DNA of 64,000 bases from Lachnospiraceae bacterium (lineage in GTDB: Bacteria > Bacillota_I > Bacilli_A > RFN20 > CAG-826): contig CAVKLJ010000004.1 of assembly GCA_963657245.1 (NCBI GenBank), positions 2,584 through 66,583 of the forward strand. The letters are read 5' to 3'. Both the position numbers and the translations under genes were made by a program. The notes below the pieces were generated by a model, which made no database searches, had not been told where the DNA came from, and worked only from the letters and a program-made list of their open reading frames with translations. Shown here in pieces: positions 3,821 to 35,971 of this stretch (position 1 is its first letter; each line of letters starts with the position of its first letter).

Positions 3821-6748
3821 ATGCCAGAGCAACTTAAAGGAAAACCTGAGACCATATCTAAGTGGCAAGGTTTCGAGCCAAAAACTGAGGAAGAAAAGAG
3901 AGTTACAAAGAAATTCCTCAAATTAGCGGCAAAAATCACCGACAACGTGGAAACAAAGCTTCATCCAACCACACAATGTCCAGAATTCTGGGCCATGCGT
4001 GAAATCATGAATGAGAATGAAGCGGACATTCTTCTTAGCATCAAGCAAAGAAAATGGTACACGTTCGAAGAATTCTATGCCAAAAACAAGAAAATGGATC
4101 CAATCCTTTTCAAAGAGACACTCGAACTTTGTGTTGAACACGGTATCATCGAATATGACTACGGTGATCACTATACAGATGATGGACCAGTTCCAGGTGC
4201 AAACCCAAAACGTATTAAACGTTACCGTTTAAGTTACTATGTTCCTGGCAGTGCCGAGCTTTTCAACTCCACAAAAGAACGTGTTGATAAGAATCCTCCA
4301 GTTGCATCAGGCTTTGAAAGAATGACTTTCTTGCCTCTTGCTAAGATTACTTCCATGGTTCCAGAAGGCGGAGATGGAATTGGTATGCACGTCATCCCAG
4401 TTGAAAAAGCTATTTCCGCTAATAACGAATCTGTTAAATTAGAAAAAATCTCCTATTGGCTAAAGAAATATGATGGTCACATTGCCGCCGGTATCTGCTC
4501 TTGCCGTTATTCCCGTGCAAAGATTGGTGAAGGCTGCGCAGATGATCCATTTGACTGGTGTGTCCAACTTGGTGATATGGCAGACTACGCCGTTGAAACT
4601 GGCCGTGCACGCTATATCAGCAAAGAAGAAGCTCTTGATATCATGGAAAAAGCCGAAAAGAACGGCTTCGTACACCAAATCACCAACATCGATGGTGAAG
4701 ACCACATCTTTGATATCTGTAACTGCGATGTCAAGATTTGTAATGCTTTAAGAACCTCTCTCTTATTCAATACTCCTAACCTTTCTAGAAGTGCATATAC
4801 TGCAAAAGTTGATCCAAAGAACTGTGTCGCTTGCGGACGTTGCGTTGAATCTTGTCCAGCCGGTGCCGTCAAACTCGGACAAAAGCTTTGCACAAAGAAT
4901 GGACCAGTTGAATATCCACAAGCTCCTCTCCCAGATAAATTACATTGGGGCAAATATGCTTGGGATGAAAACTATCGCGATACAGCAAGATATAACACCT
5001 ATCCTACAGGTACAGCACCATGTAAGACGGCTTGCCCAGCTCACGTTGCAGTTGAAGGCTATCTTAAGATGGCCAACCAAGGCAGATATGATGAAGCTCT
5101 CGCTTTAATCAAACGTGAAAACCCATTCCCAGCAGTTTGCGGACGTATTTGTAACAAACGCTGCGAAAAGGCTTGTACACGTGCAAATATCGATGAAGCC
5201 GTCTCTATTGATGCAGTTAAGAAATTCTTAGCCGAAAGAGATCTTGATCCAAAAACAAGAGTCTTACCAGAAAAGACAATTGCTAAAGTCAATGGTGACT
5301 TCGATGAAAAGATTGCCATCATTGGTGCAGGCCCAGCTGGTTTATCCGCTGCCTATTACCTTGCCTTAATGGGATATCACCCAACAGTCTTCGAAAAGAA
5401 TCAAAAAGCTGGCGGTATGATGATGTATGGCATCCCATCCTTCAAACTTGAAAAAGATGTTATCGATGCTGAAGTCGAAATCATCCGTGAACTTGGTGTT
5501 GAAATCAAGTGCGGTGTTGAAGTCGGAAAAGATGTCACAATCGACCAATTAAAAGAACAAGGCTACAAGGCTTTCTATATCGCAATCGGCTGCCAAGGCG
5601 GACGTCGTCCAAACGTTCCAAATGATCAAGCTGTCGGAACAACAATTGCCGTCGACTTCCTTAAAGGTGCATACGAAAATCAAAATCAAAAGATTGATGG
5701 TGATTGCGTCGTCATCGGCGGTGGTAACGTCGCTATCGATTGCGCCCGTACCGCTCATCGTTTCAAAGCTGACTCTGTCTCGATGTATTGCTTAGAGTCT
5801 CGCGAAACGATGCCAGCAACAAAAGAAGAAGTCGCAGAAGCTGAAGAAGAAGACATCAAAGTCAATCCAGGATGGGGTCCAAAAGAAGTCCTTGTTGATG
5901 AAAAGGGCGAAGTCTGTGGCATTATCCTTAAGAAATGTATCTCTACAATTGACCCAGAAACCAAACGTTTCAATCCTCAATATGATGAGAATGTTACAAT
6001 CGAAGTCAAAGCCAAGAAGATTGTCTTTGCTATCGGACAAGCCATCGAATGGGGCGATATGTTAAAGAATACCAAAGTCACATTCTGGCATGGTAACTAT
6101 CCAATCGCCGATAAATTCACCTATCAAACAGCTGACGAGTCAATCTTCGTTGGTGGCGATGTCTACACAGGGCCTAAGTTTGTTATCGATGCTATTGCCG
6201 AAGGACATGAAGCAGCTGAATCCTTAGCTCGTTTCGTCTCTCCATATAACGCTTCCTTAACCATCGGCCGTGACCGTAGATACTTCATCGAACTCAATAA
6301 GTCCGACCTTGTCATCGATGATTATGATCACGCTGGAAGACAAGAAGCCGGAATGGATGAAACAGCCGACTATAAGAATTCCTTCCGTGATTTCAGCAAG
6401 ACCCTTACTGAAGAACAAGTCAAGATTGAAACATCACGTTGCTTACAATGCGGTGCCTCAATCGTTGATCCTCATAAGTGTATCGGTTGTGGTATTTGCA
6501 CAACACGTTGTGAATTCGATGCCATCCATCTCGTTCGTGACCATCCAAAGGCTACGACAATGAGAAATGCCGATGATAAGATTGCTGGCTTAATGCCATA
6601 TGCCTTAAAACGTGGATTCAAGATCATTGCTCACTCTGGCTCTAAAGAAGCAAGAATGATGCGTAAGAGACGTAAAGAATTCAAGAAGGCAAACAAGAAC
6701 AATCCTAACAAGAATACCGGCTATGCCGTTCCACCAATTGAACGCTAA
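3821..6748 (+). CDS. large Fe-S flavoprotein: Cys-rich N-terminal domain, 4Fe-4S motif, GltD-like FAD/NAD(P) oxidoreductase, C-terminal 4Fe-4S ferredoxin domain
   Basis: CVACGRCVESCP. GltD-type CKTACPAH...FPAVCGRICNKRCEKAC. Two Rossmann motifs, IIGAGPAGLSAA and VIGGGNVAIDCA. C-terminal CLQCG...CIGCGICTTRC. Confidence 0.75.
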   Translation: MPEQLKGKPETISKWQGFEPKTEEEKRVTKKFLKLAAKITDNVETKLHPTTQCPEFWAMREIMNENEADILLSIKQRKWYTFEEFYAKNKKMDPILFKETLELCVEHGIIEYDYGDHYTDDGPVPGANPKRIKRYRLSYYVPGSAELFNSTKERVDKNPPVASGFERMTFLPLAKITSMVPEGGDGIGMHVIPVEKAISANNESVKLEKISYWLKKYDGHIAAGICSCRYSRAKIGEGCADDPFDWCVQLGDMADYAVETGRARYISKEEALDIMEKAEKNGFVHQITNIDGEDHIFDICNCDVKICNALRTSLLFNTPNLSRSAYTAKVDPKNCVACGRCVESCPAGAVKLGQKLCTKNGPVEYPQAPLPDKLHWGKYAWDENYRDTARYNTYPTGTAPCKTACPAHVAVEGYLKMANQGRYDEALALIKRENPFPAVCGRICNKRCEKACTRANIDEAVSIDAVKKFLAERDLDPKTRVLPEKTIAKVNGDFDEKIAIIGAGPAGLSAAYYLALMGYHPTVFEKNQKAGGMMMYGIPSFKLEKDVIDAEVEIIRELGVEIKCGVEVGKDVTIDQLKEQGYKAFYIAIGCQGGRRPNVPNDQAVGTTIAVDFLKGAYENQNQKIDGDCVVIGGGNVAIDCARTAHRFKADSVSMYCLESRETMPATKEEVAEAEEEDIKVNPGWGPKEVLVDEKGEVCGIILKKCISTIDPETKRFNPQYDENVTIEVKAKKIVFAIGQAIEWGDMLKNTKVTFWHGNYPIADKFTYQTADESIFVGGDVYTGPKFVIDAIAEGHEAAESLARFVSPYNASLTIGRDRRYFIELNKSDLVIDDYDHAGRQEAGMDETADYKNSFRDFSKTLTEEQVKIETSRCLQCGASIVDPHKCIGCGICTTRCEFDAIHLVRDHPKATTMRNADDKIAGLMPYALKRGFKIIAHSGSKEARMMRKRRKEFKKANKNNPNKNTGYAVPPIER

Positions 6749-9680: not shown

Positions 9681-11093
9681 ATGAGTGTAAATGAAGATTT
9701 AGGAAAGGAAAACGTTGGAAAACTTCTTCTTAGATTTTCTATACCTGGAGTTATCTCTTTAATTATTTCCTCTCTTTATAACATTGTTGATCAAATATTC
9801 GTTGGAAACTCTTCTTTAGGCTACATTGGAAATGCTGCGACAGGAGTTGTCTTCCCAGTCATTGTCGTTACACAAGCCTTTGCTTGGGGCTTTGGCGATG
9901 GATGCGCATCGTATCTAAGCATTTGCCAAGGAAAGAAAGAAACCGAAAAAGCCAATAAAGCAATTGGAACGGGATTAACGTTAACCTTGATCGCTTCGGT
10001 CTTGATTATCTTGTTCAGCCTCTTATTTGCGGAGCCTATTCTTACTTTCTGCGGAGCTAGTGAAAAATCTCTTCCATACGCTAAGTCTTACTTGTTTATT
10101 ACTGCTTTCTTTTTCCCAACTTTGATGATTTCAAATATGGCAAATGGTATCATTCGTAGTGATGGCTCTCCTCTATATGCCATGATTACGACAGGAGTTG
10201 GCGCAATCATTAACATCATTCTTGATCCAATATTCATTTATGTCTGTAACTGGGGAATTGAAGGAGCCGCTTGGGCAACTGTAATTGGACAAATCACATC
10301 TTTTATTTTAACGGTCGCATATTTCTTCAAATCAAAGACATTCCGTTTGTCTTTCAAAGATTTCATCCCAGATATCAAAAACTTTAAAGAACCTTCTCTT
10401 CTTGGAATCTCCTCTTTTATCACTCAAATGACAATTGTTGTCATCAATTTGGTTGGCAATACCGTAATTGTTAAGTATGGAAACTCTTCGATTTATGGAC
10501 AAGATATCCCGATCTCAATTATTTCTATTGAAACTAAAGTCTCCACGTTAGTCCTTAATATTGTTGTTGGAATTGCTTTAGGTGGGCAACCTATAGTCGG
10601 ATACAACATGGGCGCAAAGAAAATAGATAGAGTAAAGAAAACATATATCTTAATGCTGATATCGACTTTGATTATAGGATTGATATTCACAGCAATAATT
10701 GAGATATATCCAGAAGGTGTCATCTATATTTTCGGTGGACAAGATGAGCCTTTATATATCGAATATGGCAAGTTGGTATTCCGTTTATTCTTAGCCACAG
10801 TAACGTTAACTTGCTTTATCAAGATGTCTTCAATCTTTTTCCAATCTTGTGGTCAGCCTCTTAAAGCTATGATTTCTTCGTTGCTAAGAGATTTGTTATT
10901 CTTCGTTCCAGCAGTCATTATCATTCCTTTAATTGCAGAAAGCAATCAAGTTGGCAGTGGTGTTGTTGCCTTACTATATGCGCCAATGATCGCGGACATT
11001 CTCGCAACATTCATCTGCATATTCATCACCTTGAAGTTATTTAAAGAGCTTAATAATTACGCCAAATTGTCACCTTCAGAGGAAATTTCTTAA
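9681..11093 (+). CDS. MATE family efflux transporter
   Basis: LLRFSIPGVISLIISSLYNIVDQIFVG N-terminal signature. About 12 TM helices. RBS GAGGAAAAA upstream. Confidence 0.85.
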   Translation: MSVNEDLGKENVGKLLLRFSIPGVISLIISSLYNIVDQIFVGNSSLGYIGNAATGVVFPVIVVTQAFAWGFGDGCASYLSICQGKKETEKANKAIGTGLTLTLIASVLIILFSLLFAEPILTFCGASEKSLPYAKSYLFITAFFFPTLMISNMANGIIRSDGSPLYAMITTGVGAIINIILDPIFIYVCNWGIEGAAWATVIGQITSFILTVAYFFKSKTFRLSFKDFIPDIKNFKEPSLLGISSFITQMTIVVINLVGNTVIVKYGNSSIYGQDIPISIISIETKVSTLVLNIVVGIALGGQPIVGYNMGAKKIDRVKKTYILMLISTLIIGLIFTAIIEIYPEGVIYIFGGQDEPLYIEYGKLVFRLFLATVTLTCFIKMSSIFFQSCGQPLKAMISSLLRDLLFFVPAVIIIPLIAESNQVGSGVVALLYAPMIADILATFICIFITLKLFKELNNYAKLSPSEEIS

Positions 11094-11120
11094 TCTTTTA
11101 CAATTTTATGTTAATATACG

Positions 11121-11158
11121 ATATTTCCTAATAAATAAGGAAATATAAAGTATTTTTT
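11121..11158 (+). terminator. hairpin terminator after the MATE gene
   Basis: ATATTTCCT-8 nt-AGGAAATAT perfect stem. The T-run starts 6 nt downstream. Confidence 0.45.
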
Positions 11159-11193
11159 GATTTTTTGAATCACTTTTTCGAGAAGAGAAAAAC

Positions 11194-11224
11194 TTGCACT
11201 CAGTCGGGGGGGGGGAATTATTAT
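11194..11224 (+). promoter_or_regulatory. candidate promoter of the collagen-like lipoprotein gene, with a G10 tract in the spacer
   Basis: TTGCAC (11194-11199), 19 nt spacer containing G10, TATTAT (11219-11224). The ATG is at 11255. Confidence 0.4.
11206..11215 (+). repeat. homopolymeric G10 tract
   Basis: Ten consecutive G residues in an AT-rich intergenic region. Confidence 0.95.
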
Positions 11225-11254
11225 ATCCTCACAAGGAGTGAATCCAAAAAAACT

Positions 11255-13381
11255 ATGAAAAACAAAAACAAACTACTTTGCGTACTTGCTTTAAGCACAG
11301 GCGCATTACTCGGTCTTGCAAGCTGCCAAGACCAAAAAGACTCTTCTAGCAGCCAAGATGAAACACATCAAGTCTACCAAGCCTATTTAGCAAATGGCGG
11401 AACTCTCTCGTATGAGGAATGGCTTGCTACAATCAAAGGCGAAAAAGGTGACAAAGGTGACAAGGGCGACAAAGGTGATAAAGGCGACTCTGGCACCAAT
11501 GGTACAAATGGTGAAAAAGGCGAAAAAGGCGACAAAGGGGATAAAGGAGACAAAGGCGACAAGGGCGATGCCGGCGCCGACGGAGCCGATGGCCAAGACG
11601 GAAAAGATGGAGAAGATGGCGTCGATGGCAAAGATGGCGAGGACGGAAAGAACGGCGCTTCAGTCTTGACTGGCGAAGGCGTCCCTTCAACCGGGCTTGG
11701 CGCTGACGGCGACTCATACATCGACACCGAGACCTTCGACTATTATGTCAAGGCTGACGGTGAGTGGACGAAAGCCGGTAACCTCAAAGGCGCCACTGGT
11801 GCCCAAGGCGAGAAAGGCGAAAAGGGCGACGCTGGCGAAAACGGCACGAACGGAACGGACGGCAAAGACGGAAAAGATGGCCAAGACGGTGAAAAAGGCG
11901 ACAAGGGCGACAAAGGTGACGTCGGACGTATCGGATTTATGGTTAGAAGCGCAGATGAATTAGCTGCCGCTGTAACTATTGATAATTCATATATCGTCTT
12001 ATTGAGCGACATTACATTAACTGATCCACTATATATCGATTATGTCGATGTTATTATTAACTTAAACGGCAAAACAGTAACTTCATCAACAAAGAATACT
12101 GCCATTTCATCTTGGTATGAAAACGAAGTTACAATCATGAATGGTAAGGTTGTCTCTACAGATGGCAACGCATTAGGCTCATGCAAAGGATCATCGCTTA
12201 CATTAAAGAATGTTGAAGCCGAAGCAAAAGAAGCATGTGTCCTTCCTGAATGGAGCTCAACAGTTACAATCGATGGAGGAAAATACACTTCATACGACAA
12301 CTTCGTTGTTGGAACTAACGGAACAGTTGACAAAGACGACGATCATGGCCACAATGTCATCAATATTCTCGGTGGCGAATTCAATGCAAAAAGCGAAGAT
12401 GAAGATTTCATTGCATGCGGCATATATGTTGCAAATAGTGACACAGTTACTGTAACTGGTGGCACATTCAACATAGAAGATGGTGTTGGTATACTTGCTC
12501 GTTCTGGTAACACCAAGGTTTCAAAAGATGTTACATTCAAACACACACCAACAAAAGATGGAATAATTGCTGGATTTATTGGTGATGCCAAAGTTAACAT
12601 TCCTGCTGGTTATGACATCGTTAAGGATCTAATTTCTTCTTATCCAGGAGGAACACCTACTGTTGATGCAGACGAATCTTTTACAGAGAAAGCCTTAATT
12701 GATGAATATTATGTTAAGAGCGAGGCTGAATTTAGAGCGGCTGTTGCAACAGCAAAGGATGAAGAAATTAACGTTATTTTGGTTGATGATATCGAAGTCG
12801 AACAAAGAATTGATGTTAAGTGTGACGCATACATTGATTTGAATGACAAAACCGTCAAAATGAAGACTGGCAATACCACAGGTCAATGCTTCAATTTCAT
12901 TGGAGTTACCGCAGAACTTGCTAATGGTAAAATCTATGGTAAGGATTTAAGGCAAGATAAAACAACGCTTACAAGTAATGAAGGTGAATGCGATCCTGTT
13001 GTGGCGAGAAACGGTGCCAATGTAACTCTCACTGATATGTCTATTTCAATCAATAGCATCACTGGTGCTTGTGCTTACGCTTTTGCAAACAGCACAATTA
13101 CCATTGAAGGCGATAATGGAAAATACACTAATGATACGAGTGAAACGTATATACATAATACTGCTCTTAAAGCGCTCACTTTAAATCAAGCAAACGTTTC
13201 CGGACAATTAATATTTGTCAAAGGTGGTACCTTCACTGGTAACAATCCAGCAAACGGTGATGATGCAAGTGCAACAACTGGCGTAACAACCTTCCTTGCA
13301 GATGGCTATGTATCTACAGGCGGCCCAACAACAGTTGGTCCATTTACAATCGATGCACCATGGATTGTTAAAAAAGCATAA
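11255..13381 (+). CDS. surface lipoprotein with two collagen-like (Gly-X-Y) blocks and a duplicated C-terminal domain
   Basis: Signal peptide plus lipobox MKNKNKLLCVLALSTGALLGLASC. Blocks of 24 and 16 GXY triplets. Two paralogous modules (SADELAAAV...LNGKTVTS and SEAEFRAAV...LNDKTVKM). Confidence 0.8.
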   Translation: MKNKNKLLCVLALSTGALLGLASCQDQKDSSSSQDETHQVYQAYLANGGTLSYEEWLATIKGEKGDKGDKGDKGDKGDSGTNGTNGEKGEKGDKGDKGDKGDKGDAGADGADGQDGKDGEDGVDGKDGEDGKNGASVLTGEGVPSTGLGADGDSYIDTETFDYYVKADGEWTKAGNLKGATGAQGEKGEKGDAGENGTNGTDGKDGKDGQDGEKGDKGDKGDVGRIGFMVRSADELAAAVTIDNSYIVLLSDITLTDPLYIDYVDVIINLNGKTVTSSTKNTAISSWYENEVTIMNGKVVSTDGNALGSCKGSSLTLKNVEAEAKEACVLPEWSSTVTIDGGKYTSYDNFVVGTNGTVDKDDDHGHNVINILGGEFNAKSEDEDFIACGIYVANSDTVTVTGGTFNIEDGVGILARSGNTKVSKDVTFKHTPTKDGIIAGFIGDAKVNIPAGYDIVKDLISSYPGGTPTVDADESFTEKALIDEYYVKSEAEFRAAVATAKDEEINVILVDDIEVEQRIDVKCDAYIDLNDKTVKMKTGNTTGQCFNFIGVTAELANGKIYGKDLRQDKTTLTSNEGECDPVVARNGANVTLTDMSISINSITGACAYAFANSTITIEGDNGKYTNDTSETYIHNTALKALTLNQANVSGQLIFVKGGTFTGNNPANGDDASATTGVTTFLADGYVSTGGPTTVGPFTIDAPWIVKKA
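11438..11653 (+). repeat. collagen-like GXY repeat block 1 (24 triplets)
   Basis: GEK GDK GDK GDK GDK GDS GTN ... GED GKN, with repetitive GGYGAYAAR DNA. Confidence 0.9.
11789..11932 (+). repeat. collagen-like GXY repeat block 2 (16 triplets)
   Basis: GAT GAQ GEK GEK GDA ... GDK GDK GDV GRI. Confidence 0.9.
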
Positions 13382-13403
13382 AAACATCTTATAACAACAC
13401 AAA

Positions 13404-13437
13404 AACACTCTTTCCTCTAAAAGAAGGAGTGTTTTTT
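13404..13437 (+). terminator. strong rho-independent terminator
   Basis: 11-bp stem AACACTCTTTC / GAAGGAGTGTT followed by TTTTTT. Confidence 0.75.
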
Positions 13438-13520
13438 ACTGTCTGCAAAACATTGCATAAAACGTTGTTACTAAAGTTTAAACGCTGGGGTTTTGCAGCG
13501 AATTTTCGATTTTTTGGAAA

Positions 13521-13547
13521 AGAAAAAGAGCCTTCTAACGAAGACTC
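13521..13547 (-). terminator. terminator downstream of tRNA-Glu
   Basis: Minus strand GAGTCTTC-gtta-GAAGGCTC followed by TTTTTCTTTT. Confidence 0.55.
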
Positions 13548-13559
13548 GTTTGTTTTAAG

Positions 13560-13635
13560 TGGTGACCCAGCCGGGAATCGAACCCGGGATTCAACCTTGA
13601 GAGGGTTGCGTCTTGAACCTCTTGACCACAGGGCC
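13560..13635 (-). tRNA. tRNA-Glu (anticodon CUC)
   Basis: Reverse complement reads GGCCCTGTGGTCAAGAGGTTCAAGACGCAACCCTCTCAAGGTTG...CTGGGTCACCA. Anticodon loop CTCTCAA. 3-bp D-stem typical of tRNA-Glu. One T-T mismatch in the acceptor stem. Confidence 0.85.
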
Positions 13636-13710
13636 GCGACACATATTAAAACATTTTATGATTGGTTTTTCAAGATATATGAACTTATCTAGCGATATTT
13701 CTTCGAAGAA

Positions 13711-28424: not shown

Positions 28425-28753
28425 ATATGGGTCCATTAACAATACTCTGGGGTGTCTTAGTTCTTGCCGGACTTGGCCTTGTGCTTGGCTTCTTACTTGC
28501 ATTAGCCGCTAAATTCCTCCATGTTGAAGAAGATAAGCGTATCAAAGAAGTGGAAAGCATGTTACCAGGTGCTAACTGCGGTGCTTGCGGATATGCCGGT
28601 TGCCACGATTTAGCCGAAGCCTTAGTTACAGGCGCAGCAAAGAAAGTTACAGCTTGCAAAGTCGGTAAAAAAGAGAAGAATTTTGATCCAATTGTAGCCT
28701 ATATGAAGGCTACTCCAGGACCAGATGGAAAAATTACTGAAGTAAGTGAATAA
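28421..28753 (+). CDS. rnfB: truncated-type RnfB: TM helix plus N-terminal Fe-S cluster domain only, no ferredoxin domains
   Basis: LPGANCGACGYAGCHDLAEAL...ACKVG (CxxCx4Cx16C) after one TM helix. 110 aa. Confidence 0.75.
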   Translation: MNMGPLTILWGVLVLAGLGLVLGFLLALAAKFLHVEEDKRIKEVESMLPGANCGACGYAGCHDLAEALVTGAAKKVTACKVGKKEKNFDPIVAYMKATPGPDGKITEVSE

Positions 28754-28759
28754 ATTTTC

Positions 28760-28788
28760 TTGCTCAACGATTATCGTTTGAGTATAAT
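28760..28788 (+). promoter_or_regulatory. sigma-70-type promoter for the tRNA-Ala/tRNA-Met pair
   Basis: TTGCTC, 17 nt spacer, TATAAT. Followed by the hairpin CCGCTCA-ttg-TGAGCGG, which ends 3 nt before the tRNA. Confidence 0.55.
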
Positions 28789-28813
28789 AAACACCGCTCA
28801 TTGTGAGCGGAAT

Positions 28814-29078: not shown

Positions 29079-32000
29079 ATGTGGTGTATGATGCCAACAA
29101 GTAATGAAGCAAACAACAACTTTGATGGTAAAATCGACAAGTTTCTTAAACAAACGTTAGAAAGTTCATCTTTGTGTTTTGGCATTTTTGATACGAATTC
29201 TGGCAAGGCTGAAACTATTCTTTTATCGAAAGGTTTCAAAACGAATTTCAATAAAAACAATCCTTCTAGTAAAGAAACAATCTTTGGGATTTCAGTTGTC
29301 AACGTCCATAAAGATGATGTAGAAGGCTTCAAGGAAAAAGCATCTTCCTTAGTTAACGGGGGAGATGAACTAGATTTATATTTCCGTTTCCATTCATCAT
29401 CTAATAGCCTTTATCATTCAATCCACGCCTTAGGAAGACGTATCAAACTTGAAGGAGATGATTTCCTTTTTGTTTGGTATAACGATTTAGCAAGGATGGA
29501 TGATGATACGTTTGTCTTTGATGAAAGAGCCTATGATAACACCGTTAGCATCATTAAAAAATATTATGATGACGAATTAACTGGGTTGCCAAGGATGGCC
29601 AATTTCGTTCATCACGTCCAAGAACTGTTATCGACCCCATATATTGATGAGAAGAATTATGTTCTTCTTGCCTTTGACTTAACGGGTATGAAAGCCTTCA
29701 ACATGAAATATGGCTTCGAAAACGGGGACCGTTTGATCATCTCTATTGCCGACATTTTGAAAAAACATTTCGAAACTCAATCAATTTCACGTTTTGGCGA
29801 GGATCATTTCTACGTTTTAACCGAGAATGATGAGATTGAAAAAACAATCAAAGAGATTTTTGAAGACGTTAAAAAAGCAAATGATGGCAATACCTTACCT
29901 ATTCGTGTTGGCATCTATAAAGACAAAATAACGGATATTTCGGTTGCTTGCGATAAGGCGAAAACGGCCGCGGATGTTGGAAGACATTCCTATATTTCCC
30001 ATTTCACGTATTTTGATGAAAATCTATCAGAAGAAATCGAAAAACGTGATTTTATTTTAAATAATTTAGAAAATGCCATAGAAAAAGGCCATATTCAGCC
30101 ATATTATCAACCAATCGTTAGAACATTGAATAATAAGGTTGCAGATGAAGAGGCCCTTGCCCGTTGGAAAGATCCTGAGAAAGGATTATTAAATCCTGCA
30201 GATTTCATCTCAATTCTTGAAGATGCAGGAATCATCTATAGATTAGATTTATGTATCCTAGATTGCGTCCTTGCCGACTTAAAAAAGAAAAAAGACAAAG
30301 GCCAATATCTAACTCCAGTTTCAATTAATATTTCTCGTTATGATTTTGAATCGTGCAATATCGTTGAACTAGTTTCAAAGAAAGTCACGGAAAGTGGCTT
30401 TTCTCCCGACTTAATCATTATCGAAATAACTGAATCTGCCGCTTTCTATAACAAAGCATTGCTTATCGAACAAGTGAATAGATTCCATGAATGTGGCTTT
30501 AAAGTCTGGGTTGATGATTTTGGCAGTGGCTATTCTTCCTTAAACAGCCTTCAAGAATTCTCTTTCGATGGAATGAAAATAGATATGGGTTTCTTATCTT
30601 CTTTTAAAGAGAATAAGAAAACTCCAAGTATCATCAAAGAAACAATCAAACTTGCGGAAAAAATCGGTATAGATACAATTTGCGAAGGCGTTGAAACAAA
30701 AGAAGAATTGGATTTCTTGCGTGAAGCTGGATGCGATAAAGTCCAAGGTTACTATTTCTCTAAGCCAAATCCAATCGATTATATAATTTCTGGACAGACT
30801 CCTTTAAAGAGAGAAAATCCTGAAGAGCGTGAATACTATCGTGAAATAGCTCTTTCTTCACTTAGTGAGCCTGAATCAAATGGCGATAAAGGCACCATGG
30901 CAGAGCGCGCCTTATCTGGACCTAGTGTTGGAATCATCGAAGTAAAGGATAACACATTCCGCCTCTTAAGAACGACAAAGGCTTTTAAGAGCGCGTGTGA
31001 AATCGAAGGGTTTATTTCTCCTAATGAGCAATTTGATGGTGGCTATCCATTCATTCGAACACCTGATTCTTTCTTCTCTGAAGCAATATATAGGGCTTGT
31101 GATACAGGAAATTGGGAAGAAACATCCTTCTATTCCGAAAGACGCATAACCACGTTCTTCTTTAGATTAGTTTCTACAAATCCTGTTACTAAGGCTAAGT
31201 CTGTCATGTGCATCATGTCTTATGCCAATAAGGGCAGTGATAAAAAAGTCCAAAGAGAAGCTGAACTAATCAATTTAGAAACTATCAATGTTGATGATTT
31301 CCCATTACCTGTAATCATCATCGAACTTTGTAACGACGCCGGAAAAGAGCGTCTTAAATGTTTGAACCTTAATAAAGCGTTCTCTGAATTAGCATCGGTA
31401 ACTCCTGAAGAAGCGAAAAACTCTAACTATCTTGAAAGTGTCTTTGATAAAAAGAATGAGTGGAAGAAACTAATAAAGCAAGTTCTTTCCGTTAGAAGAC
31501 CTTTAAAGGGAGAGACTTTCCATGAGCCAACGCGCCTATGGATGAATTTCATAATTTCTCCTTGTTTAAGTGAGAATTGCGTGTGTGTGACCATCCTTCA
31601 AGATAGCAGCTCTTTCTCCTTATTTGAAAAAAGAGCAATTAACTGCGATGATGAAGCCTATAGAATTGCTAGTATCTTAAAACAAGATGGCAATCATTCA
31701 AAAAAGATCGATGATGCCCTAAATGAATTTGGTCGCTCATCTAATGCGGATGACGCTTTGGTGATTGAAATAAATGGAAACGTCATTGAACATTGCCACG
31801 AGTGGAACAAACCAGCTTTCAATCCTTTATCTAGAGAAATTGATGAAGCTGAATTTGTTAATTTACTAGCCTTTTTAAGAAAACGTTTTAAAGAAGAAAC
31901 CTATGTTTCCGTTAAAGCCATTGAAGAATTGAAAATAAATGGTGGAACATTCTATGATTGGTGTAGAGCACATGGGGTAAAACGTTTCTTGATTTTCCCA

Positions 32001-33317
32001 TTATTCTCCCAAGGAAAATTAATCGGTCTCTTCATTGTTAACAATTACGAAATTAATAATGCCGAATTTACAAGAAAGTTGATGGAAAAGCTTTCTGGAG
32101 TTTTCTCTTCGCAGATAAGTTTATCTTACAAAGATAAAGAGAAAAACGAAAAAACACATGGATTTCCTAAGTATTTTTCCGATTCTAGCGACTTGAAGAC
32201 CAAAATTAAACGTTTCTTTGGAATTGGCAAAAGAAGTGCGTCGGAAAATATCTATAACGATCGTAGCAACATCGAAATAGGGCGACTTACATCTGCCTTC
32301 CTTGGTTTGTTTGAACTTGTGTTTGCAATTGTCTTTACCATTAATTTCTATTTAAACAAAGATAAACAACCAGATAACATCTACTATCAAAGCACATGGG
32401 TTTGGAGCCACTTGGCTTTATACGCTTTTGCATTTGTCGTAAACGCCCTCTTCTTCCTTTATTGTGAGTTCTATTATCATGATAAATTCACTAAAGTTAA
32501 GAAATTATCTTTAAAAACCCATGTTGTGATCGATGCATATGTATTGTGCATAATCACTTTCGGAATGCTTATCTCTATTATGGACGTGCAAAATGGCGGA
32601 CAACCAATAACGTTCGTTACAATGCTACTATATACAATGCTGATTTTCCGCTTATATCCGATCAAGAGCATCATCTATCTATTCGTCATGAATGTTTTAT
32701 TTGTCATTCTCCTTTGCGAAGTTCCGATGGTCAACCTTCCTATGGATAAAATAAACATGAGCTTGGATATAGGGGCATTTGCTAACATCATTTGTGTATT
32801 TATTCTTGAATGCGTTGCTTCATCTCTTCTTTATAAAGCCAGAATGAGAGCGGCCGCACACTGTATTGTCGATACTCTTTCAGGCACTAAATGCCGCTTT
32901 GCCTTACAAGAAGATTTCAAGCACTTAGAAGGAAAACGAGTTGTTGTCATGATGCTTGATGTCGATGATTTTAAGTTACTTAATGACATCTACGGTCACC
33001 AAGCGGGGGATGAAGTCATTAACGAAGTTGGCCAAGCTTTAATTAAGACCTTTGGTGTTGAATCGGTTTACCGTTATGGCGGAGATGAATTCCTTGTTAT
33101 CAAAAAAGGCGATTTATTCTCTTTTGAAAAACATTTATTTAACCTACAACGTAATATAAGTTCAGTAACCTCACTTGATATGAACGTTACCTTCTCGGCT
33201 GGCTATAAAGAGCATCTTGTTGGAGAAAATGCTTCTCTAGATGAAGTGATTAGAGAGTCTGACTTGCTCTTATACGAAGCTAAGAAACGTGGCAAGAATC
33301 AAATCGTCAAAGGATAA
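29079..33317 (+). CDS. multidomain c-di-GMP signalling protein: PAS-like, degenerate GGDEF, EAL, PAS/GAF-like region, ~6 TM helices, canonical GGDEF
   Basis: First cyclase motif reads RFGEDHF. EAL motifs EEALARW, EITES, DDFGSGYSS, EGVETKEE and QGYYFSKP. C-terminal YRYGGDEFLVI. The start codon is uncertain. Confidence 0.8.
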   Translation: MWCMMPTSNEANNNFDGKIDKFLKQTLESSSLCFGIFDTNSGKAETILLSKGFKTNFNKNNPSSKETIFGISVVNVHKDDVEGFKEKASSLVNGGDELDLYFRFHSSSNSLYHSIHALGRRIKLEGDDFLFVWYNDLARMDDDTFVFDERAYDNTVSIIKKYYDDELTGLPRMANFVHHVQELLSTPYIDEKNYVLLAFDLTGMKAFNMKYGFENGDRLIISIADILKKHFETQSISRFGEDHFYVLTENDEIEKTIKEIFEDVKKANDGNTLPIRVGIYKDKITDISVACDKAKTAADVGRHSYISHFTYFDENLSEEIEKRDFILNNLENAIEKGHIQPYYQPIVRTLNNKVADEEALARWKDPEKGLLNPADFISILEDAGIIYRLDLCILDCVLADLKKKKDKGQYLTPVSINISRYDFESCNIVELVSKKVTESGFSPDLIIIEITESAAFYNKALLIEQVNRFHECGFKVWVDDFGSGYSSLNSLQEFSFDGMKIDMGFLSSFKENKKTPSIIKETIKLAEKIGIDTICEGVETKEELDFLREAGCDKVQGYYFSKPNPIDYIISGQTPLKRENPEEREYYREIALSSLSEPESNGDKGTMAERALSGPSVGIIEVKDNTFRLLRTTKAFKSACEIEGFISPNEQFDGGYPFIRTPDSFFSEAIYRACDTGNWEETSFYSERRITTFFFRLVSTNPVTKAKSVMCIMSYANKGSDKKVQREAELINLETINVDDFPLPVIIIELCNDAGKERLKCLNLNKAFSELASVTPEEAKNSNYLESVFDKKNEWKKLIKQVLSVRRPLKGETFHEPTRLWMNFIISPCLSENCVCVTILQDSSSFSLFEKRAINCDDEAYRIASILKQDGNHSKKIDDALNEFGRSSNADDALVIEINGNVIEHCHEWNKPAFNPLSREIDEAEFVNLLAFLRKRFKEETYVSVKAIEELKINGGTFYDWCRAHGVKRFLIFPLFSQGKLIGLFIVNNYEINNAEFTRKLMEKLSGVFSSQISLSYKDKEKNEKTHGFPKYFSDSSDLKTKIKRFFGIGKRSASENIYNDRSNIEIGRLTSAFLGLFELVFAIVFTINFYLNKDKQPDNIYYQSTWVWSHLALYAFAFVVNALFFLYCEFYYHDKFTKVKKLSLKTHVVIDAYVLCIITFGMLISIMDVQNGGQPITFVTMLLYTMLIFRLYPIKSIIYLFVMNVLFVILLCEVPMVNLPMDKINMSLDIGAFANIICVFILECVASSLLYKARMRAAAHCIVDTLSGTKCRFALQEDFKHLEGKRVVVMMLDVDDFKLLNDIYGHQAGDEVINEVGQALIKTFGVESVYRYGGDEFLVIKKGDLFSFEKHLFNLQRNISSVTSLDMNVTFSAGYKEHLVGENASLDEVIRESDLLLYEAKKRGKNQIVKG

Positions 33318-35843: not shown

Positions 35844-35872
35844 TTGAGATACTCTCTTTACTTAGATATAAT
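35844..35872 (+). promoter_or_regulatory. sigma-70-type promoter for tRNA-Ile/tRNA-Ser
   Basis: TTGAGA, 17 nt spacer, TATAAT. Followed by the GGCTGCA-t-TGCAGCC hairpin. Confidence 0.6.
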
Positions 35873-35895
35873 ATCTAGGCTGCATTGCAGCCAGA

Positions 35896-35971
35896 GGTCC
35901 ATTAGCGCAGTGGTTAGAGCGAACGACTTATAATCGTTAGGTCTCAGGTTCAAACCCTGAATGGACCACCA
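35896..35971 (+). tRNA. tRNA-Ile (anticodon UAU)
   Basis: GGTCCATTAGCGCAGTGGTTAGAGCGAACGACTTATAATCGTT...ATGGACCACCA. Anticodon loop CTTATAA. Confidence 0.8.

Follow-up and report, generated by a model that had tools for sequence, protein, structure and literature searches.

A poly-G tract in the putative promoter spacer of a collagen-like lipoprotein gene: a candidate phase-variation switch in an uncultured gut Bacilli lineage

An uninterrupted homopolymer of ten G residues (G10) is located between a -35-like and a -10-like hexamer, upstream of a gene for a collagen-like surface lipoprotein, in the window, which is the whole 64-kb stretch of DNA that was analyzed. On balance, we lean towards the interpretation that this G10 tract is a genuine promoter-spacer switch that would control the phase or the volume of expression of the lipoprotein. 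According to the proposed mechanism, the tract would be a slippage-prone repeat in the spacer of a sigma-A (sigma-70-type) promoter that belongs to an accessory surface lipoprotein gene.

Results

The G10 tract and the promoter layout

The tract occupies positions 11206-11215 of the plus strand, 39 nt upstream of the ATG at 11255, and is real and far from what chance would produce. In fact, the number of G/C runs expected in the window is 0.008 for lengths of 10 or more and 0.2 for lengths of 8 or more, and an iid model and a first-order Markov model gave the same result. The first-pass annotation had proposed a search for other G/C tracts of at least 8. This search was negative within the 64-kb window, where no second G/C run longer than 6 is present; the runners-up were one C6, which lies within a tRNA, and four G5 runs, and there were no A/T runs longer than 7 across the window. 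The intergenic region that contains the tract (11094-11254, 161 nt) has a GC content of 24.5% once the tract is removed, in agreement with the AT-rich setting that had been described for it.

All the elements of the putative promoter are located on the plus strand. The -35-like hexamer TTGCAC (11194-11199) is preceded by the A-rich stretch GAGAAAAAC and followed by the 19-nt spacer TCAGTCGGGGGGGGGGAAT (11200-11218), which consists of TCAGTC, the G10 tract and AAT. The -10-like hexamer TATTAT (11219-11224) matches the consensus TATAAT at 5/6 positions, and a Shine-Dalgarno (SD) sequence, AAGGAG (11233-11238), is located 16 nt upstream of the ATG. The coordinates first given for TTGCAC, G10 and TATTAT, as well as the 19-nt length of the spacer, were all confirmed on the sequence.

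The downstream lipoprotein

The lipoprotein gene (11255-13381, plus strand) encodes 708 amino acids and was characterized by its open reading frame, Pfam Collagen match, lipobox and AlphaFold2 (AF2) model. The product begins with a lipoprotein signal peptide, MKNKNKLLCVLALSTGALLGLAS-C (nt 11255-11326, plus strand), which has the lipobox LASC and the lipidation residue position Cys24. When compared with the lipobox pattern [LVI][ASTVI][GAS]C, the window protein was found to contain MKNKNKLLCVLALSTGALLGLASC with Cys24, and the ortholog at locus L015 in the sister species described below contains LAGC. Two collagen-like Gly-X-Y runs of 25 and 17 triplets follow on the plus strand (11438-11662 and 11789-11941; Pfam PF01391 Collagen, E = 6.9e-20). 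The expectation that an exposed, repetitive lipoprotein lies downstream of the tract was thus borne out by the LASC lipobox with Cys24, by the two Gly-X-Y runs and by the Pfam Collagen match.

The C-terminal region (11927-13378, plus strand) was assigned two tandem beta-helix domains on the basis of AF2 and Foldseek. No Pfam or PHROG family was found in the C-terminal 484 amino acids, and a PDB sequence search with the C-terminal domain gave nothing significant. The AF2 model of this region, built from a 15-sequence alignment, has a pLDDT of 87.7 and is almost all beta-strand. Its Foldseek neighbours are right-handed beta-helix proteins and include PL6 alginate lyases, the Lactobacillus reuteri SRRP adhesin, the PfbA adhesin and phage tailspikes; the best E-value is 3.5e-06, and the global TM-scores are low, because the model holds two tandem domains.

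The lipobox, the collagen runs and the beta-helix model together suggest a fibre that is anchored by a lipid and has a collagen stalk that carries beta-helix heads. As modelled, such a protein could be an adhesin, or could bind or degrade glycans at the cell surface. The LASC lipobox, the collagen repeats and the adhesin, lyase and tailspike structural neighbours are all features of a surface-exposed or host-interacting product. Lipoproteins with a collagen stalk and beta-helix domains are a typical class among phase-varied surface proteins.

Two further observations were made on the stalk. The DNA of the collagen-like region at 11434-11568 is a 9-bp tandem array of 15 copies, with further arrays at 11579-11638 and 11850-11889. 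The contig of L014, a second assembly of the window species, terminates inside the collagen array, and the array of L015 differs by whole-triplet indels, so that stalk length probably varies too. Between its two Gly-X-Y runs, the window protein has a non-collagen insert, SVLTGEGVPSTGLGADGDSYIDTETFDYYVKADGEWTKAGNLKG (11663-11788, amino acids 137-178), where the L015 ortholog has unrelated sequence.

Comparison with the sister species

Orthologous loci were reached by synteny from the upstream gene, which encodes a MATE efflux transporter (9681-11093, plus strand; Pfam MatE, E = 1.7e-35) and served as the synteny anchor; its homologs P0121-P0125 led to loci L014-L020. This walk was used because collagen repeats dominated the results when the lipoprotein itself was the query. 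A full-length protein search and a scan of representative genomes returned only homologs of at most 48% identity or unrelated collagen-like proteins, none of which had a G tract. With the C-terminal domain alone as the query, the L015 ortholog was not returned, and it was found only through MATE synteny. Exact look-ups of the window lipoprotein, the MATE protein and P0273 found no record. In the JGI metagenomes, a length-agnostic DNA pattern of the promoter island gave zero matches, and a protein-alignment scan gave just three distant loci and no further orthologs. The sample of tract lengths consists of four assemblies, two per lineage.

The first lineage is the window and L014, which is from the same species (99.6% nucleotide identity, with 15 mismatches in 3801 nt) and has an identical intergenic region, including the G10 tract. 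The second lineage is a sister species, represented by L015 and L016, which has the same gene order, a MATE protein 86% identical and a lipoprotein 73% identical to those of the window, and a tract of G8 in an 18-nt spacer. L015 and L016 are 92.6% identical to each other (7.4% nucleotide difference), and both have G8. The promoter of L015 and L016 reads cTTGAAA-TTCGGT[T/C]-G8-CTT-TATGAT-...-CACAAAGGAG-...-ATG. In the alignment, TTGCAC of the window is matched with TTGAAA and TATTAT with TATGAT, and the CACAA(A)GGAG block around the SD sequence is kept. The stretch from the -35 to the SD sequence is 66% identical in the four-way alignment and is the best-conserved part of the intergenic region, compared with approximately 40% identity for the remainder even under forced alignment. 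The motifs common to the four sequences are AAAC-TTG, the G run, TTAT-ATAT and CACAA-GGAG.

An uninterrupted G run is therefore retained at the same promoter position over approximately 20% nucleotide divergence, with a length of 10 in one species and 8 in the other. A kept G run with a lineage-different length is the pattern that would be expected of a selected repeat, unlike a chance run. Both lengths are in the slippage-prone range, which for G/C starts at about 7-8, and the tract is a candidate hypermutable simple sequence repeat.

The consensus tract lengths follow the lineage strictly (G10, G10, G8, G8). The first-pass annotation had considered that an invariant tract in related strains would speak against a switch. 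What was found falls between the two outcomes, since the length differs between the species (10 versus 8) and is invariant within each of the two lineages. Such lineage-wise lengths appear compatible with a selected modal length, and equally with a static element. The stability within a lineage exceeds what a freely hypermutable tract might show, unless selection or mutational bias fixes the modal length.

The tract may instead be a conserved static promoter element, that is, a fixed spacer structure or a regulator site with low constitutive or regulated expression, whose length changes by rare drift. The constant length per lineage, with G8 common to L015 and L016 despite their 7.4% nucleotide difference, is in favour of this explanation, as is the presence of one such tract in 64 kb, which gives no sign of a set of phase-variable loci across the genome. 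However, G tracts of at least 8 are established to be intrinsically slippage-prone in every bacterium tested (PMC7864442). In addition, the run stayed uninterrupted although the lineages diverged by approximately 20% in nucleotide sequence and the spacer bases beside it changed, which suggests selection on the repeat. Together with two further points against it that are given in the following sections, these data make a static element unlikely, although it has to be taken seriously.

The comparison also bears on whether the tract is translated. The tract lies inside a longer open reading frame of 738 amino acids that starts at TTG 11165, and if this start were used, the gain or loss of one G would shift the reading frame of the protein. 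In the G10 state there is indeed no stop between TTG 11165 and the lipoprotein frame, and the L014 gene call begins at the equivalent TTG (L014 3390). In L015, however, an in-frame TGA separates the tract from the ATG, and because of this the tract is not considered to be coding. Moreover, TTG 11165 is not preceded by an SD sequence, while the AAGGAG before ATG 11255 is conserved, and a lipoprotein signal peptide must be N-terminal, with MKNKNK...LASC conserved from the ATG. The extension to TTG 11165 is by all appearances a gene-caller artefact that buries the signal peptide, and a coding-frame switch is very improbable.

An error of sequencing or assembly, such as poly-G from two-colour Illumina chemistry, is still less credible. 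Some platforms do yield poly-G artefacts, and homopolymer lengths are error-prone, but the tract is located inside the contigs of four separate assemblies from at least three samples, with conserved flanks and lineage-consistent lengths. Even jointly, a coding-frame switch and an artefact have very little probability.

The hexamers around the tract as the putative working promoter

A relaxed promoter scan of the window identified three tRNA promoters of the form TTGNNN-17-TATAAT, namely TTGCTC-17-TATAAT, TTGAGA-17-TATAAT and TTGCAT-17-TATAAT, in the regions 28684-28813, 35844-35895 and, on the minus strand, 1111-1229. Because these three promoters show that form, the organism appears to use canonical sigma-A promoters with a TTG-core -35 and 17-nt spacing, and a 19-nt spacer is off the optimum by the same comparison. 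The 17-nt optimum that had been assumed for the lipoprotein promoter is thus matched by the spacing of tRNA promoters in the same DNA.

TTGCAC matches the TTGACA consensus at 3/6 positions, which are the TTG core. The description of this hexamer as -35-like holds in terms of the TTG core and its resemblance to the window tRNA promoters, and is weakened by the match of just 3/6 to the consensus; judged by the organism's own standard, TTGCAC would be a normal -35. At TTG-core stringency, most upstream regions of protein genes in the window do not contain a recognizable -35/-10 pair, and the lipoprotein promoter is the sole such match with a 19-nt spacer among the upstream regions of the window. 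A strict scan (at least 4/6 positions per hexamer and a spacer of 16-18 nt) misses this promoter, which is called once the TTG core suffices and spacers reach 20 nt.

The observed spacers are 19 nt in the window and 18 nt in the sister species, and neither has the 17-nt optimum. That both lineages are 1-2 nt off the spacing of the tRNA promoters would be odd for a fixed promoter and argues against a static element.

Downstream of the MATE gene, an AU-rich hairpin, ATATTTCCT-loop-AGGAAATAT (11121-11146), is present in the MFE and centroid structures and is followed by T-rich runs (the whole element is 11121-11168, plus strand). This hairpin is a weak terminator-like element, and the terminator scan skipped it because its stem has too few G-C pairs. 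Its presence after the MATE gene means that the lipoprotein gene probably needs its own promoter; because it is weak, read-through could give a basal expression that is independent of the spacer. The room between the hairpin and the SD sequence is approximately 60 nt and contains a single TTG...TAnnnT pair. The hexamers of this pair flank the tract, are kept between the species and resemble the window tRNA promoters, with a -35 that has just 3/6 positions of the consensus. From this combination we infer that these hexamers are the promoter that drives the lipoprotein gene. The earlier reading of the tract as part of a promoter spacer is accordingly strengthened in part, by the same -35/poly-G/-10/SD layout in the sister species and by the 17-nt promoters elsewhere in the window.

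If transcription started further upstream, or read through from the MATE gene, the G run would be in the 5' UTR and could act at the RNA level, either through a hairpin that hides the SD sequence or through reiterative transcription. In the MFE fold of 11094-11260, GGGGG is paired with UCCUC, and a second pairing, of CACUC with GAGUG, overlaps the SD sequence; weak promoter-like sites are present at 11075-11104 and 11097-11125, and the AU-rich hairpin after the MATE gene may terminate poorly. However, the fold of the window sequence is no better than that of shuffled sequences (z = -1.6, with 13 of 200 shuffles as good), and the corresponding region of the sister species (L015) does not have such a structure (z = +0.6). 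The upstream promoter-like sites occur at chance frequency (8 found versus 7.0 +/- 2.1 expected) and are located in sequence that is not conserved in L015, while the conserved feature is the hexamer pair that flanks the tract. An RNA-level role is therefore regarded as improbable.

Neighbourhood and accessory status of the lipoprotein gene

The window has a GC content of about 38-40% and carries housekeeping and glycoside-hydrolase genes that are typical of a gut anaerobe. The neighbours of the locus are the MATE transporter, a tRNA-Glu, a C69 dipeptidase and a cation/proton antiporter. The tRNA-Glu(CUC) (13560-13635, minus strand; ARAGORN and Rfam) bounds a variable slot that holds the lipoprotein gene. 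This gene is missing from the same slot in L017, L018, L019 and L020. In L017, whose MATE protein is 94% identical, the slot between the MATE and C69 peptidase genes is empty and MATE runs straight into the terminator and tRNA-Glu region (L017 1834-2033, compared with window 13380-13640), so that both the lipoprotein gene and the G-tract promoter are absent. In L018, L019 and L020, other genes occupy the slot. As the gene is absent from the slot in these relatives, it is accessory and lies in a variable slot beside a tRNA. A phage or prophage origin was considered and rejected, as the PHROG matches are confined to the collagen region, with none over the beta-helix domain, and the neighbours are housekeeping genes.

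In L018, whose MATE protein is 74% identical, the same MATE-to-C69-peptidase slot contains another G10 (6349-6358, in the region 6328-6400), located 15-30 nt upstream of a GGDEF diguanylate-cyclase gene. A test for homology between this region and the promoter in the window was negative, and this G10 is independent. The distance from TTGACA to the nearest -10-like hexamer is 26 nt, so that the tract does not lie in a canonical spacer. A second G10 in front of a gene, here one for a diguanylate cyclase, hints that the clade may have a few loci controlled by poly-G tracts.

Invertible promoters in the distant homologs

Homologs that are 45-48% identical to the lipoprotein were found in higher-GC human-gut contigs and other metagenome contigs from gut Firmicutes, and none of these homologs has a G tract. 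Four of the loci have invertible promoters (L011 4119-4295, L013 325-499, L021 2735-2911 and L022 2027-2206), with 25-30-nt inverted repeats around approximately 120 bp just upstream of the gene. A tyrosine recombinase open reading frame directly upstream of the inverton was called and confirmed by Pfam in L011, and L021 and L022 have an open reading frame of approximately 309 amino acids where L011 has the tyrosine recombinase. The flanks of L011, L013 and L021 are collinear, and the inner segment of L021 corresponds to that of L011 and L013 in reverse complement (alignment score of 108 versus -6). As a consequence of this orientation, TTGACA-17-TACAAT points towards the gene in L021 and away from it in L011 and L013; the inverton of L022 has TTGACA-17-TATAAT pointing at the gene.

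Judged by this arrangement, these loci are a textbook inverton with both states caught in different assemblies. The invertons indicate that the lipoprotein family is under on/off control elsewhere, and this raises the prior for a switch at the window locus. They also show what appears to be independent selection for on/off control of this family, and the demonstrable switching of the distant homologs is a further point against a static element in the window. An inverton at the window locus itself was rejected, since the locus has no flanking recombinase open reading frame and no inverted repeats, and its intergenic region is 161 nt.

Discussion

Proposed mechanism

If the G10 tract is a promoter-spacer switch, the G10 state with its 19-nt spacer is predicted to be weak or off, and G9 (18 nt) and G8 (17 nt) are predicted to be on. 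That tract length sets expression is suggested by this spacer arithmetic (19, 18 and 17 nt) and by precedent (PMC7864442). A high frequency of tract mutation in this organism would likewise be expected by analogy. Slippage would then lead to a clonal population that mixes cells with differing amounts of exposed lipoprotein, and such mixed levels could be useful against antibodies and phages and under changing attachment needs in the gut. Under the switch model, the dominant state of the population would be one of low or intermediate expression, as the spacers are 19 or 18 nt.

Comparison with known systems

The window locus appears to fit the promoter-spacer class of switches, which includes porA, tp0126 and vlp, on three features that can be assessed from the sequence. 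In Mycoplasma hyorhinis, the repetitive surface lipoproteins of the vlp family are switched by a poly-A tract between the -35 and the -10. The window locus is similar in that repetitive surface lipoproteins of an organism in the Bacilli/Mollicutes lineage have a homopolymer in the promoter spacer. It differs in that the vlp tract is poly-A and belongs to a multigene family with combinatorial switching, while the window has poly-G, a single gene and an unrelated protein architecture. The Vlp system is referenced in PMC11868660.

A further comparison, in terms of the tract itself, may be made with Treponema pallidum. In the tp0126 gene, which encodes an OmpW homolog, a poly-G tract is located between the -35 and the -10 and transcription is best at 17-nt spacing (PMC7864442). 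With G8 the tprL promoter is active, but its activity is close to background with G10, and tract lengths from 7 to 11 occur within isolates; tprE, tprG and tprJ also have poly-G promoters, with tracts of about 7-11 in or beside the core promoter (PMC7864442). The likeness lies in a poly-G at the core promoter of a surface protein gene, and G8 and G10 are the lengths found in the two species studied here. The annotation has suffered in the same way: the tp0126 tract was swallowed by an over-long open reading frame that hid the signal peptide (PMC7864442), which is the same mis-annotation as the extension of an L014-type frame through the tract. In contrast, T. pallidum is a spirochaete pathogen with outer-membrane beta-barrels and has dozens of tracts, compared with one in this 64 kb. 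Length heterogeneity and reporter effects were shown experimentally there, whereas for the window locus they are predictions.

In Neisseria meningitidis, the poly-G of porA is in the spacer and the poly-C of opc is at the -35 (PMC7864442). The window locus is similar to these in having a G/C homopolymer in the core promoter; in Neisseria, changes in -35/-10 spacing give a graded volume control of a surface antigen (PMC7864442). The differences are that the Neisseria products are a porin and an adhesin of a Gram-negative outer membrane, that many phase-variable loci are documented there, and that the lengths vary between isolates, whereas they are constant per lineage here.

Other switches resemble the window locus in their product. 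The collagen-like adhesin Scl2 of Streptococcus pyogenes is switched by coding pentanucleotide repeats (PMC3022705). Unlike the window tract, the repeats of Scl2 (SclB) are located just past the start codon and give translational frameshift control, and the protein has an LPXTG anchor, not a lipid. The gut invertons of L011, L013, L021 and L022 give on/off control of the same surface protein family, but they do so by site-specific recombination, whereas at the window locus replication slippage would operate without inverted repeats or a recombinase.

Implications

Most of the documented repeat-driven phase variation comes from pathogens such as Neisseria, Haemophilus, Campylobacter, Treponema and Mycoplasma, and the attention given to phase variation in gut commensals has centred on invertons. 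The mechanism that we propose is itself well established, and the novelty is the host, an uncultured gut Bacilli lineage. If the switch is genuine, an uncultured lineage of commensal Bacilli would for the first time be found to have a poly-G contingency locus in a promoter spacer, and contingency-locus biology would reach uncultured commensals. Strong, fluctuating selection would then be acting on this surface protein, which could be, for example, a phage receptor, an adhesin or a target of IgA.

We also put forward, tentatively and with some doubt, that the family of collagen-stalked, beta-helix-headed lipoproteins in gut Firmicutes is under stochastic on/off control twice over by unrelated mechanisms, with a poly-G spacer in the uncultured low-GC Bacilli and an inverton in the higher-GC relatives. 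Two switching mechanisms would appear to have converged on one family of surface proteins, and if true, the double control would single out the lipoprotein as one of the main objects of selection by host IgA or phages in the gut.

Other features of the window

The window contains two other features that were observed in the course of this analysis. A tRNA-Ile with the anticodon UAU was identified by ARAGORN at 35896-35971. Such a tRNA is uncommon in bacteria, in which AUA is usually decoded by a lysidine-modified CAU tRNA. In addition, the region 29079-33317 encodes a 1412-amino-acid protein with GGDEF and EAL domains, which points to elaborate c-di-GMP signalling.
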